A stretch of DNA of 64,000 nucleotides from a virus (Duplodnaviria > Heunggongvirae > Uroviricota > Caudoviricetes): the IMG/VR virus record IMGVR_UViG_2721755660_000001; one strand, 5' to 3'. Below are positions 24,001 through 30,000 of this stretch, in pieces. The position numbers were made by a program. Each line of letters begins with the position of its first letter. Position 1 is the stretch's first letter.

Positions 24001-27000
24001 CCGCCACCTCTGATGTGTCTGGCATCCTCAACGCACCCGTACTTTATTTGTCATATGCTCCGCAAAATGCAGGTTGTCGTTGCAACCAATGCGGTAATTT
24101 TTTGTGTGCGAGTGCTCAAAAAACGTTGATTTTCATAAAAGGATGATTTTATGCTGCCAGACCAGCGACCAGCGACCAGCGACCAGCGACCAGCGACCAG
24201 CGACCAGCGACCAGCGACCAGCGACCAGCGACAGCGACCAGCGACCAGCGACCAGCGACCAGCGACCAGCGACCAGCGACCAGCGACCAGCGACCAGCGA
24301 CCAGCGACCAGCGACCAGCGACCAGCGACCAGCGACCAGCGACCAGCGACCAGCGACCAGCGACCAGCGACCAGCGACCAGCGACCAGCGACCAGCGACC
24401 AGCGACCAGCGACCAGCGACCAGCGACCAGCGACCAGCGACCAGCGACCAGCGACCAGCGACCAGCGACCAGCGACCAGCGACCAGCGACCAGCGACCAG
24501 CGACCAGCGACCAGCGACCAGCGACCAGCGACCAGCGACCAGCGACCAGCGACCAGCGACCAGCGACCAGCGACCAGCGACCAGCGACCAGCGACCAGCG
24601 ACCAGCGACCAGCGACCAGCGACCAGCGACCAGCGACCAGCGACCAGCGACCAGCGACCAGCGACCAGCAGTAAATCAAGAAAGTCTGTAAAATCTGTTG
24701 AGCCGGAAATTACCGAACTGGCGAACTCATGGCTTAAATCTTACAGGCTTGATTACAAGTTGCAGAATGCATCACTTAACGGAGAGATCGATAACGCACT
24801 GGACGCTTATTTTTCGAAAAATGGCGGCGCAGGCGGTAATCGTCCCGACGTAAAACTCCTTGTTAAGGACAAATACGGCAAGCAGTATCCCGTTCTCATC
24901 GAGTATAAAGGCTACAAGGACAGGCTTATCAGACTTGGCAGCAACGGTATTATTGAGAACAAAGATGCCAGAAAAGAATGGAATTTTAAAAATATTAATG
25001 GATACGCGGTGAATGGCGCAGTCCATTATGCCAACGCACTTCTTCAGTTCACCAATTACCCTGATATTATTGCTATTGGTATGACCGGCTGGCGCGATGA
25101 TGGTACAGGCGAACTGCATCATGAAATCGGCGTGTGGTACGTATCAAAGAATAATTTAGGAGCCGGACAGAAGGTTGGTGAATTCACCGACTTATCGTTC
25201 CTTGCTGACAAAAATGTTGATGGATTTCTCAACAAGATAAAGCTGCTTAATCTTCCTCCCGAAGAACTGGAAAAAATCAAGGCCAGCAAAGAGGAAGAGA
25301 TAGACACGCGACTTTCCCGTCTGAATAACGATATTTACCAGAATGAAAAGGGGCTTGGTGAAAGCGATCGTGTTTACCTTGTTGTGGCTACCGTTATTGC
25401 AACGTTGGGGATTCCGGGAAAGTTAGCACCGCTGGATAAAAAAGAACTGACCTCTTCAACGGAGGAGGACTTGCGTGATGGTGATATTATTTTCAGGAAA
25501 ATAAGGAATTTTTTAAGGCTGAAAGCTGTTCCTGAAACAAAAAGAGAAATGATTTTGCGCTCGTTGCAAAATACGCTGTGGACTGAAAACATTAACAAAC
25601 CAGTCAACGGTGAAAGCCAGTTAAAGCGCGTGTTTGTTAAAGTTGTTGATGATCTTGGGGAGTATTACAAAATTGGACTGACCACCGATTTTACGGGCAA
25701 ACTGTTTAATGAGATGTATCGCTGGCTTGGATTTACGCAGGACAAGCTCAATGACGTCGTTCTGACACCACCTTATGTTGCCACATTGCTGGCACGACTC
25801 GCCAGAGTAAACAAAGATTCCTATGTGTGGGATTTTGCTACAGGTTCTGCGGGATTGCTTGTGGCTGCAATGAATGAAATGCTCATTGACGCCAGAGAAA
25901 ATATTCACTCACCGAACGAACTACAACTTAAGGAAGCGCAAATCAAGGCTGAACAGCTTCTTGGCCTTGAGGTGTTATCCAGTATTTATATGCTGGCCAT
26001 CCTGAATATGATTTTGATGGGGGATGGTAGCTCGAATATCCTCAATAAAGACTCGCTGGCCGATTTTGACGGCAAGTATGGATTTGGGAAAACAGGAGAA
26101 AAATTCCCTGCGGACGCATTTATTCTCAATCCTCCGTATTCAGCTAAAGGTAACGGCATGATTTTCGTGCAGAAGGCGCTGTCGATGATGGATAAAGGCT
26201 ATGCTGCAGTGATTATCCAGAGTTCAGCTGGCACAGGAAAGGCTACGGAGTACAACAAAAAAATACTCAAGGAAAATACCTTGCTGGCAAGCATCAAAAT
26301 GCCTGCGGATCTGTTTATTGGTAAATCAAGCGTTCAGACGTACATTTACGTTTTTCAGGTAAAAATTCCGCATAACGCGAAACAGGCTGTTAAGTTTATC
26401 GACTTTTCCAATGACGGCTACGCTCGCTCTAATCGCAAAAAGGCAAGAAACAATCTTGTTGATGCCGATCGTGCAAAAGAGCGTTATCAGGAGGTTGTGG
26501 ATCTGGTTCACTTCGGGAAAGGTTGCCTTAATATCTTTACGGAGGATGAATATTTTGAGGGAACAATCGATCCTGATAGTGGTGAGGACTGGAATCAGAC
26601 CAGGCCAGTAGATGCTAGGCCAACGCTGGAGGATTTCAAAAAGACGGTAGGTGATTACCTTGCATGGGAGGTCTCGCAATTACTGAAAAAACAAGGTGAA
26701 AACAATTTTGCGGGAAAGTAAATTCCCCGCTCAGCGATAAATTAAGAAGCGTTGAGTGGGGAGAGTTCAGGATTGGCGATTTGTTCTATGTGAGCACAGG
26801 CTCGCTTATCTCCTCAGGAAGATTAAAACCAGGCAAAATCAAACGTGTTTCAGCAAAGAGCGATCAAAACGGTATCATCGGAGAGTTTGATACCGAGTTT
26901 ATGGATGATGCAAGGCATTATGAAAATTTTATAAGCGTTAATTTTTTTGGAGATGCTTTTTATCATCCTTATTGTGCCAGCGTAGAAATGAAGGTGCATG

Positions 27001-30000
27001 TTCTTACATTAAAATCAAGTAAGTCCGACTTTAATGCAAAGCGCGGACTGTATGTTGCCAGTATGATTAATAAAGCTTTAAAGGGGCGTTTTAATTATGG
27101 TCAACAGTTATCGAGTTCCAAACTCAGAGATGGAGAATATTTCATCTCATTACCAGTGAAAAATAATGAAATTGACTGGTTTTTTATGGATAATTATATA
27201 GAAGAGCTGGAAGCGGCCCATATAGAAGAGCTGGAAGCATACCTGATAGCTGCTGGGCTGAGTGATTACCAACTAACGGAAAAAGATTATCTTATCCTGG
27301 AACATTTTAAAAATATTGAATTTTCAGGCTTTCCTGTTACTGAGTTATTCTCAGTGTGCAATACAGGAAACATATTGTCTAGAGACATCATAGAAAATAG
27401 TGGGGATGTTCCTTATCTTTGTGCTAGCCGTGATAATAACTCTGTTAGTTCTTATATCGCCTATGATGACTCACTCTTGGAAAAAGGGAACTGTATTTTT
27501 ATTGGTGGTAAGACATTCGTTGTAACTTATCAGGAGCGAGACTTTTTTTCAAACGACAGTCATAATTTGCGACTCTATGTTAACAATGAGGATGGAAGGA
27601 CAAAGTTTGCTTATTTGGGCATTATTTCATGTATTTATAGGTCTATTTCACATAAATATTCATGGGGGGATAGTGTTAGTAATAGAAAAATTAAGAACGA
27701 TGTTATTTGGTTGCCAGTGAAAAATAAGTCACCTGACTTTTGTTATATAAATGACCTTATTTCAGTTGTTCATAAGCTTGTCATTAAAGATGTTGTCCAG
27801 TACGCAGAACGCAAAATGAACGCATACAGGCAAGCTATAACAAGTCGCGGTTATGATGATTCTGGTGTCAGTTAAAAAACATTTTACAATCGTAAAAATC
27901 CTCATATCATGATAAGAATGGTTACATTGCCACGCTGCTTAACCCGCCGATGCGCGGGTTTTTTGTATCCGGAATTCTGTGGGTTACCCTGCCCCCCTTA
28001 GAAAGGTGCGACAGCAATTAATAACAAAATCTTAAAAATCGCATATGGCACTATTAGTTTTCTAAATATTGTATATTTTAAGTATTGCAGGATAACCCTG
28101 TAACGAAGTTTGCGTAACAGCATTTTGCTCTACGAGTTTGCCAGCCTCCCCCAGTGGCTGGCTTTTTTATGTCCGTAGCGTCAAAGCAGCAATGGCGCTG
28201 GGGCGTCGTGCAATTGGCGTTGAGCTGGAGAGCGGGCGTTTTGAGCAGACGGTCAGGGAAGTTCAGAATGTAGTCAGTCAGAACGGATGATATTGCAGAA
28301 TTAGTTACGTACCGTTATTATCCTGCGCCCGGCCCTTTAGCTCAGTGGTGAGAGCGAGCGACTCATAATCGCCAGGTCGCTGGTTCAAATCCAGCAAGGG
28401 CCACCATCACATACCGCCATTAGCTCATCGGGATAGAGCGTCAGCCTTCGAAGCTGGTTGCGCGGGGTTCGAGTCCTCGATGGCGGTCCATTATCTGCAC
28501 ACTGCGTTGTTAGCTCAGCCGGACAGAGCAATTGCCTTCTAAGCAATCGGTCACTGGTTCGAATCCAGTACAACGCGCCATATTTATTTACCTGGCTCGC
28601 TTTTGCGGGCCTTTTTTGTATCCGCGCCACGCCCGGCGCATATCAAAAACCACAGAGCTTTTCAGGGGGGAGCTTACTGGATGGTCAGTGTGACTTTCTC
28701 TGTGGGCTGGTCACCCCCGGGCGCAGGCTCACCCACTAAAAGGAAAAGTCACGATGTTTGGTATTTTCAAAAAGAAAACCCGCAGAGCAGCAACTGAAAT
28801 TAAAAAGTTTGAGAAACGCGATCTGGCACAGGCGGTTATTAATGCTGCCTACCTGGTGGCCTATGCAGATGGTGAATGTGAGACTTCAGAGAAAGCGAAG
28901 ATCGAACAGGTATTACGTAACCAGCCAGCATTGTCCGCATTTACGTCAGAAATTAATGCCATCAGTGCCACGATCACAGGTCAGCTTGACACCAATTTTA
29001 AAATTGGTCGTCGTGCAGCGTTGCGTGAAATTGAAGATGTGAAACACGATACGCGTGAAGCGGAAGATGTGCTGGATGTGGCGGTGGCCATTGCTGAAGC
29101 AGATGGTGAAATTGAGCCGGAAGAGCGTAAGGTTCTGGAAGAGATTGCTGGTGTTCTTGGCCTGCGACTGGAGAACCACCTGTGACGGTAAAACTGCGTC
29201 TGGCCGCTGTGGCACTCCTGCTGTTTCTGGTGGTGATGGTGGATTTCACCAGCAGGATCATGTCGGTGCTGGCGGATGGAGTGCTGGTGGTCGGTATTGT
29301 GGTGGTGCTTTTTCCTTTGGTGAAAAAGGACATGCCAGGTAGTTAACCGGGTATCAGTTACGCCCAGAAAATTTTAATTGTCTCACAATTCAGTCAGTTG
29401 ACAGTTGCCTGTCAGACTGAGCATTTGTTAAAAAAATTTCGCATGGTGAATCCCCCTGTGCGGAGGGGCAATCAGCAAGTAGGTATATGGGATAATTGCG
29501 GATTCAGGTGCTGATACTGAATTCACCGGGAGGCACCCGGCACCATGCAGGTAAGCAGTGTAAATGTTTACATAAGCAAATCCCCTCACCGGAGGGGATT
29601 TTTTACGCCCAAAAATTCCGCGTATGGTGTTGAGATTGAAAGCCTGGTGCTGGAGATAAATGTACCGACATCATGATAAAAAAACGCCAGCACAGAAGAG
29701 AACGGGAAAACGAGTCTGACGCTGGCGTGGGGATATTCCCCGTGGAGAAATGATATGTAACACATATCGGGAGTATTTTTATATAAAAATGATAACCATT
29801 GTCAATCATAACGGTCGGGAATGATGACGTTTATGCATCAGAGCCATCAGTAATTAACGGGTGGCTTTTTTATTGTTGTCAGCTTCCGGATAACGGGAGA
29901 CGGGGTATGTACCAGATGGAAAAAATCACAACAGGTGTGTCATACACCACGTCAGCGGTGGGGACGGGATACTGGTTACTGCAGCTGCTGGACAAAGTCT

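Follow-up and report, generated by a model that had tools for sequence, protein, structure and literature searches.

A BcgI-like cassette in a lambdoid prophage

The window analysed here is a stretch of 64,000 nucleotides (nt) from a tailed-phage genome (Caudoviricetes; IMG/VR record IMGVR_UViG_2721755660_000001), and our subject is a restriction-modification cassette on its plus strand: a gene, here called RM, encoding a nuclease joined to a DNA methyltransferase (24151-26721, 856 amino acids), and after it a reading frame, S, encoding a specificity module with two target-recognition domains (26718-27875). A sequence-only reading had described the pair as a fused nuclease-methyltransferase with a separate specificity subunit, resembling BcgI (Type IIB/IIG) more than a classical Type I system. 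Both open reading frames (ORFs) exist as it described them and most of that description held, with two qualifications: S is probably not separately initiated, and the figure of 856 amino acids, correct for the ORF in the window, hides a hypervariable repeat, which in most strains throws the gene out of frame. Our comparative set for Escherichia coli consists of 26 fetched copies of cassette loci, whose flanking 3.2 kb are mostly 99-100% identical; the cassette is present in 30 of 5426 complete E. coli genomes, every time in the chromosome.

The RM protein begins with a repeat-encoded tail; next comes its nuclease domain, of the PD-(D/E)xK kind (about 24670-25284), and then an N6-adenine methyltransferase of the gamma class (with motif I at 25831-25860 and NPPY at 26128-26139). 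The motifs on which the fusion had been proposed are all found, in the order proposed: NRPDV at residues 230-234, VLIEYK at 248-253, DFATGSAGLL at 561-570 and NPPY at 660-663. Residues E212, D233, E251 and K253 of the nuclease domain are invariant in homologues from several genera. In hidden Markov model (HMM) searches the two proteins came out as a Type IIG enzyme and a Type II specificity subunit; for RM, PADLOC gave a full-length match to REase_MTase_IIG (PDLC03616, 3.4e-232) and another match, to PDLC03602 (1.4e-44), and Pfam gave N6_Mtase (1e-20) plus a sub-threshold VRR_NUC nuclease at residues 204-260. The AlphaFold model built for the 205 residues that immediately follow the repeat (predicted local distance difference test, pLDDT, 72; predicted template modelling score, pTM, 0.70) has an alpha-beta-beta-beta-alpha-beta core, in which D opens the first strand and ExK lies in the second, and a fold search matched it to the PD-(D/E)xK domains of HsdR and BpuSI. 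That search was made with the N-terminal domain model only, the full-length model (nine-sequence alignment; pLDDT 53, pTM 0.40) being too poor to use, and a PDB sequence search with the enzyme returned nothing at E <= 1.

One may also consider that these genes form a Type I methyltransferase (HsdM plus HsdS) that lacks HsdR, with the N-terminal region of RM being the HsdM N-domain. PGAP does label the enzyme "HsdM family class I SAM-dependent methyltransferase", and NCBIfam yields hsdM and MADS2 matches, all of them sub-threshold (TIGR00497 hsdM reaches 36 bits against a cut-off of 243). The nuclease fold and the HMM results contradict such an assignment, which we find scarcely credible, and an HsdR-like gene, already reported missing by the sequence-only reading, lies beside the cassette in none of the 26 E. 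coli loci. What is found instead is a PD-(D/E)xK nuclease and an N6-adenine methyltransferase in one polypeptide, an adjacent HsdS-like component with two target-recognition domains, and homology to the REBASE-derived Type IIG/IIB models of PADLOC. Judged from its sequence, the cassette is a restriction-modification system like BcgI (Type IIB/IIG), which a lambdoid prophage carries as a moron. The RAST label "BcgI alpha chain-like" is already attached to the gene in phage PhiR12_3, which has a copy with 100% identity along 3.2 kb, and the RM protein is about 70% identical across Clostridia, Bacteroidota, Proteobacteria, Neisseria, cyanobacteria, spirochaetes and bacteria of the candidate phyla radiation.

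The S frame is the -1 frame of RM; it is open from 26700, being closed upstream by a TGA at 26697-26699. Its HsdS-like, two-domain character is borne out by Pfam (Methylase_S, 1e-19, in two stretches) and by the Specificity_II models of PADLOC for Type II specificity subunits (9e-25 and 6e-24), and a Neisseria homologue is named as a BcgI subunit in one source. The conserved N-terminal motif SDKLRSVEWGEFRIGDLF lies upstream of the first ATG, GTG or TTG of the ORF, the TTG at 26781, as had been noticed before, and in the window the frame contains neither a canonical nor a near-cognate start codon before the conserved Trp of VEWGEF. Annotation reflects this: on identical S DNA, PGAP calls an intact gene from GTG 26790 in some records and a pseudogene plus a fragment in others. 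The central helical spacer of S contains a 24-nt in-frame repeat (27198-27249; Tandem Repeats Finder, TRF, period 24, 2.2 copies) encoding IEELEAAH / IEELEAYL, with two copies in the window and most loci and three in L014, L017 and L018. If the TAEL/LEAT repeats of EcoR124I/II and NgoAV are a guide, this copy number should alter the length of the spacer between the two halves of the recognition site, which would make it a second, specificity-altering repeat in the same operon.

A conserved, probable frameshift signal between RM and S

The RM gene ends in GCG GGA AAG TAA, so that its zero frame contains the slippery heptamer G_GGA_AAG (26712-26718) with the stop codon TAA (26719-26721) directly after it. 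Five nt beyond the heptamer stands a 13-bp stem-loop (26724-26762, 26724-26736 pairing with 26750-26762; minimum free energy -23.3 kcal/mol, z -4.95), the proposed frameshift stimulator, for which an Rfam scan gave no family match. The heptamer is the one used at the G-T site of phage lambda, and A_AAA_AAG, found in other members of the family, is the dnaX and IS911 site. Both G_GGA_AAG and C_CCA_AAG are reported to be highly shift-prone in E. coli (PMC5009743).

We surveyed the junction in 80 species-representative loci from outside Escherichia, in 77 of which the end of RM was found, giving 72 distinct junctions. S lies in the -1 frame of RM in all but three of the 77, and a canonical heptamer is present in all 72 junctions. 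The P-site codon is GGA in 71/72, the preceding codon ends in G in 71/72 even though its amino acid varies among Leu, Pro, Ser, Glu, Ala and Gln, and the A-site codon is AAA or AAG in every case, with a stop codon directly after it in 69/72. Because GGA and the preceding G are kept to this extent across codons for six different amino acids, the heptamer is held by synonymous-site constraint. A Shine-Dalgarno-like 5-mer precedes the heptamer by 6-12 nt in 50/72 junctions.

The stem-loop is conserved as well. In all of these junctions a spacer of 6 nt is followed by a helix of 11-13 bp that encloses a 14-nt loop; it is paired in 99.7% of 792 cells, as against 35-52% in slid controls, and RNAalifold recovered the same helix independently. 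Four of its pairs show compensatory double changes (30 cells), a level reached in 0/500 shuffles. In one covarying pair, which joins the synonymous third position of a Leu codon to the first position of a Lys/Glu codon, the counts are U-A 35, C-G 21, U-G 16 and C-A 0. The helix does lie inside a conserved coding sequence (PL..VEWGE), so its conservation is partly protein constraint, which counts against reading all of it as an RNA signal.

Four different canonical heptamers occupy the same place in different lineages: besides G_GGA_AAG these are A_AAA_AAG (L012-L016 and L099), A_AAA_AAA (L085 and L100) and, in Helicobacter pylori, C_CCA_AAG (L111). Two further variants of the E. coli junction, and one copy from Salmonella, differ in sequence and combine A_AAA_AAG with a spacer of 4-5 nt and another, likewise perfect stem, and distant relatives (44-46% identity) keep both the -1 relation and a stem, one of them with A_AAA_AAA. 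The last base of the heptamer tracks taxonomy (L019-L098): AAG is found in nearly all Proteobacteria and in Flavobacteriia and Sphingobacteriia, while Clostridia and gut Bacteroidales have AAA almost without exception. This split could reflect tRNA-Lys repertoires that set the slippery codon, or habitat-structured horizontal transfer. The H. pylori junction (CP078828, 2585-2680) reads CCC CCA AAG TGA, that is, C_CCA_AAG with a GTGA overlap that gives a GTG, followed by a spacer and stem of the family type. In the window, the heptamer is also able to pair with the 5' arm of the stimulatory stem (26710-26730, GCGGGAA...TTCCCCGC), a hairpin flagged on the minus strand by the terminator scan; it is not conserved in the wider family and might modulate frameshifting.

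We therefore consider it likely, from the sequence and its conservation, that S is made by programmed -1 ribosomal frameshifting coupled to RM synthesis, and a conserved frameshift cassette best explains why S has no start codon of its own. Some ribosomes would slip back by one nucleotide on G_GGA_AAG and read on into S, probably stimulated by the adjacent stop codon and the stem-loop and, in many relatives, by an upstream GGAGG-like sequence. The products would then be free RM of 856 amino acids and an RM-S fusion of 1241, in which the junction reads ..NNFAGKVNSPLSD... Natural relatives exist in which RM and S form a single in-frame ORF with the same domain order (P0122, 71% identity; P0149, P0151 and P0213, 38-44%), and the conceptual fusion is colinear with P0122 across the junction, with a gap of one residue (8e-78). 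Further single-ORF relatives carry one target-recognition domain. A collection of 5.8 billion proteins contained no annotated RM-S fusion for E. coli.

An alternative explanation is that S is a separate protein after all, made by termination and reinitiation, or from a non-canonical start, at the RM stop, with the GGGAAA motif and the hairpin serving translational coupling. The stop that so regularly follows the motif fits this, as do the ATGA overlap in 5/72 junctions and the GTGA of the H. pylori locus; moreover, EcoKI hsdM and hsdS are translationally coupled via a 1-nt overlap (PMC3510504), and in H. pylori a separately initiated S together with the RM gene gave active methylation (PMC3936762). 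However, in one third of the junctions, the window included, the stop is overlapped by a GTA codon, which does not qualify even as a near-cognate start, and the S frame of the window offers no near-cognate start before the conserved Trp. Reinitiation also has no need of an X_XXY_YYZ motif kept by synonymous choice, nor of its replacement by other canonical heptamers from lineage to lineage, and as a general mechanism we find it distinctly unlikely, while at the few ATGA and GTGA junctions it is possible.

Start codons elsewhere are not a general answer either. Before the conserved Trp, 36 of the 72 distinct junctions have no ATG, GTG or TTG, and in the rest such codons stand at scattered positions. 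A start 51 nt 5' of the heptamer was tried as a general S start and rejected: the -1 frame is open that far in only 16/72 junctions, and in the window it is closed by the TGA at 26697-26699. Transcriptional slippage was likewise rejected as a general mechanism, GGGAAAG having no long homopolymer, although it is conceivable for the A7 variants. The overlaps and the starts at -51 do speak against frameshifting as the only route to S, and independent initiation of S could therefore occur in a minority of junctions.

A second alternative is that the start-less S is simply a defect and that the cassette is silent or decaying. In H. pylori the native HP1471/72 and JHP1364/65 systems are inactive in the methylome, which Krebes et al. 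attributed to the missing S start, and their S genes also carry a poly-G frameshift (PMC3936762). Methylation was also undetected for NgoAVIII of N. gonorrhoeae, a possible member of the family (PMC6789123). In E. coli, most copies are out of frame at the repeat described below, and S is split in L015 and L016. The H. pylori and NgoAVIII results weigh most against a working frameshift system, and the native loci may be weakly expressed or active only on hemimethylated DNA. Yet the same start-less layout, with intact S ORFs of about 370-420 amino acids and RM proteins about 70% identical, is shared by over 70 species from many phyla; the target-recognition domains have diversified between E. 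coli variants with their ORFs still open; and decay would not keep a heptamer, a spacer and a helix with compensatory changes. We consider a mere defect very improbable.

Under programmed frameshifting, the coupling of S to RM would also fix the composition of the enzyme. BcgI is A2B and Type I methyltransferases are M2S, with two catalytic subunits per recognition subunit, and one free RM plus one RM-S fusion would give the same 2:1 stoichiometry. An engineered EcoKI M-S fusion is functional but requires additional free M (PMC3510504), which is the mixture that partial frameshifting would supply.

A heptanucleotide repeat at the start of RM

The RM gene has a Shine-Dalgarno sequence, AGGA (24140-24143), at the optimal spacing of 7 nt from its ATG (24151-24153), and a tandem repeat of GACCAGC begins six bases after that ATG. 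The tract (24160-24669; TRF period 7, 73 copies, 99% matches) consists of 72 perfect units and one unit of 6 nt, and encodes (DQRPATS)n, codons 4-173 of the 856-amino-acid protein. The unit is stop-free in all frames and is read as (DQRPATS)n in every one of them. Tract length varies from 23 to 120 units (161-840 bp), with 21 lengths among the 26 E. coli loci, and the ATG is in frame with the enzyme in six of them (frames 0/1/2 = 6/8/12). Strains G8 (99 units), JNEC-KY173 (66) and DETEC-S792 (54) are among the in-frame copies, G6/7 (83) and G1/2 among the others. The block AGGAT(G/A)AT..TATGCTGCCA, which contains the Shine-Dalgarno sequence and the ATG, is kept in 26/26, including L012, which is only 84% identical.

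In other genera an ATG stands at the position that the tract occupies in E. coli, and the tract is not present in homologues from 80 other species; the repeat was found only in Escherichia. A Salmonella contig ends exactly at the tract position. Two Neisseria proteins differ at the same site, P0097 having two KSN units more than P0046 (MTQASKKSNKSNKSNKS.. vs MTQASKKSNKS..), and the N-terminus of the RM enzyme may be prone to repeat expansion in general.

We consider it highly likely that the tract is a slipped-strand, phase-variable ON/OFF switch of RM. It has the features of contingency genes: a unit not divisible by three, placed between the start codon and the conserved coding region, polymorphic in length and with alternating frames. 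Translation would begin at ATG 24151 and pass through the (GACCAGC)n tract, and slipped-strand mispairing, by adding or removing 7-nt units, would bring the start codon into or out of frame with the enzyme. If S is made only by ribosomes that started at ATG 24151, this single tract would switch nuclease, methylase and specificity together.

It may be argued, on the other hand, that the tract is a neutral minisatellite in the 5' leader and that the enzyme starts downstream of it, at TTG 24760, with expression independent of tract length. PGAP places the start at that TTG or further downstream, and 23-120 units is far above the usual length of a contingency repeat. But TTG 24760 has no Shine-Dalgarno sequence, whereas a strong one, with its ATG, abuts the tract and persists in the variant that is only 84% identical; no in-frame ATG, GTG or TTG stands between the tract and TTG 24760. 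Other genera conserve the approximately 30 residues upstream of that TTG (SVEPEI..LANSWLKSY), which in the model make up the first helix of the nuclease domain, and the repeat unit is stop-free in every frame. We hold a neutral tract to be unlikely. The annotation of this region contains two further PGAP artefacts (loci L002-L018): a reverse-strand "YXWGXW repeat-containing protein" or hypothetical protein laid over the tract (24149-24679, minus strand), and an enzyme gene begun inside the ORF, at TTG 24760 or later.

Several points do weigh against the tract acting as a switch. The in-frame fraction, 6/26, is at or below the one third expected by chance, a point that the neutral-tract explanation shares, and because it is not above chance, selection for expression is unproven; as the comparison stands, the data prove that the tract is hypermutable, not that expression has been selected. 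In the window itself, RM reads ON only if the 6-nt unit GACAGC (24230-24235) is real, this unit being the sole basis of the open frame, and it could be an indel error of long-read sequencing. A promoter scan found no sigma-70-like promoter between hok, the toxin gene upstream, and ATG 24151.

Taken together, a BcgI-like system with a repeat switch and a frameshift-coupled S is, in our judgement, fairly likely to be what the cassette encodes. We favour on balance, though with less assurance, a wider picture drawn from the same comparisons: that in a widespread BcgI-like family a conserved -1 frameshift makes the recognition module as an extension of a fixed fraction of the catalytic subunits, which would hard-wire the 2:1 ratio, and that E. 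coli lambdoid and Shiga toxin (Stx) prophages have added a long heptanucleotide contingency repeat.

Genomic setting of the cassette

The cassette follows the Q antiterminator and a pR'-like promoter (23618-23645) and precedes the lysis genes, which is where the sequence-only reading had placed it, in the slot used by Stx phages for stx; the same cassette in other strains lies directly 5' of stx2A (L015) or of stx1c (L104). Its low G+C content, also noted before, applies to the enzyme and S genes (0.34-0.46, against about 0.50 in the flanks) and fails for the repeat tract (0.63-0.66). Reading from left to right, the module would comprise hok/sok, RM, the S frame and a terminator, the last being a terminator-like hairpin with a T-run (27941-27960, plus strand) picked up by consensus scan only.

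The hok/sok toxin-antitoxin locus (23652-23976, plus strand) consists of sok (Rfam RF01794, 118 bits, 23652-23826) and a Hok ORF (23821-23976). Hok/Gef is annotated by PGAP in all fetched loci, and hok/sok accompanies the cassette in 26/26 E. coli copies, 170-330 nt 5' of it, L012 included. In L012 the module is found elsewhere in the prophage, 5' of DUF1367, DUF1364 and DUF1133 genes, with hok/sok still attached. Since hok/sok stays with the cassette at this other position, the constant linkage suggests a mobile hok/sok-RM-S unit.

Just 3' of the cassette lies the C-terminal remnant of a phage DNA methyltransferase gene (28138-28290; incomplete according to PGAP, its N-terminus missing), and the cassette seems to have taken the place of the 5' portion of this methylase gene. 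The remnant is followed by the tRNA trio typical of Stx phages (28331-28580), whose first member is Met(CAT) according to ARAGORN and Ile according to PGAP; in L015 stx2A comes after the tRNAs, and in L104 stx1c comes after the cassette. In the window, TerB-family and DUF3927 cargo genes (28754-29346) separate the tRNAs from the lysis genes. A tRNA-Arg(CCT) gene (3400-3474, minus strand) close to the window's left end may mark the prophage attachment site. In Salmonella enterica (L099, AAIXRA010000034) a system with the A_AAA_AAG junction lies not in a prophage but beside genes of the integrative conjugative element type (RAQPRD, DUF3262, DUF2976, DUF3487, DUF2895 and DUF3438).

Implications

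We infer strongly, at the level of sequence, that the cassette combines a hypervariable contingency repeat, unusual for E. coli, with a -1 frameshift cassette that ties specificity to catalysis, is spread across the bacteria and has apparently not been described before. Within the searchable literature we found no proposal of frameshifting for any restriction-modification system and nothing on the repeat unit or on heptanucleotide phase variation in E. coli; restriction enzymes go unmentioned in a large review of recoding and in two surveys of frameshifting, and the main text of a REBASE repeat survey does not mention Escherichia (PMC7383803). If correct, the frameshift signal would be the first example of recoding described for restriction-modification systems. 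Many S subunits annotated as start-less or as pseudogenes would then be functional, and recognising the frameshift cassette would correct thousands of records as well as REBASE-type predictions. A stoichiometry set by frameshifting would explain how a single message can yield an enzyme with two catalytic parts and one recognition part.

An H. pylori relative that has been characterised methylates the bipartite site TCAN6TRG once given an engineered ribosome-binding site and start codon (PMC3936762), and the conclusion that the start-less S caused the inactivity of the native genes, leaving no route to S expression, may need revisiting. In E. coli, a system switching at random beside stx could split a population into groups with unlike methylomes and unlike uptake of phages and plasmids, with possible effects on the spread of Stx phages and on strain typing.

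Comparison with known systems

The closest comparison is with BcgI, whose catalytic subunit has its domains in the same order and whose HsdS-like partner likewise contains two target-recognition domains. Among the PADLOC models, a Type IIG one of 637 positions and a Type II specificity one of 341, which are the lengths of BcgI A and B, are matched at 1e-44 and 9e-25. In contrast, the best-matching model (3e-232) belongs to another Type IIG family of about 720 positions, and the recognition module here is apparently a C-terminal extension obtained by frameshifting, where B of BcgI is presumably a protein with its own start.

The predicted fusion would resemble the single-chain Type IIB enzymes of the AloI, PpiI, TstI and CjeI type, and also the engineered EcoKI M-S protein, in that catalytic and specificity modules share one polypeptide. 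It differs from them in that both protein species would come from one messenger RNA and one start codon, in a ratio set by the efficiency of frameshifting. The heteromeric (BcgI) and single-chain (AloI/CjeI-type) forms of Type IIB would thereby be linked as alternative solutions at one junction.

The proposed signal has the three-part architecture of dnaX: an X_XXY_YYZ heptamer, a stem-loop 5-6 nt downstream and, in the 50 junctions counted above, an upstream Shine-Dalgarno-like 5-mer. As with dnaX tau/gamma and lambda G/G-T, the outcome would be two proteins with a common N-terminus in a fixed ratio. Unlike these, it lies in a restriction-modification gene, the zero-frame stop abuts the heptamer, and the stimulatory helix is built from the codons of the conserved N-terminus of the downstream domain.

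As for the repeat, E. coli is not known to rely on contingency genes of the repeat type. Phase-variable restriction-modification genes elsewhere include the Type III mod genes of Haemophilus and Neisseria (tetranucleotide repeats), the Type IIG gene cj0031 of Campylobacter (poly-G) and the BcgI-like S gene of H. pylori (poly-G). The E. coli tract is like these in that a simple-sequence repeat in the 5' coding region sets the frame, its length varies between strains and all three repeat frames are open. It differs from them in its 7-nt unit, in its very long tracts and in its location in a lambdoid, and sometimes Stx, prophage.

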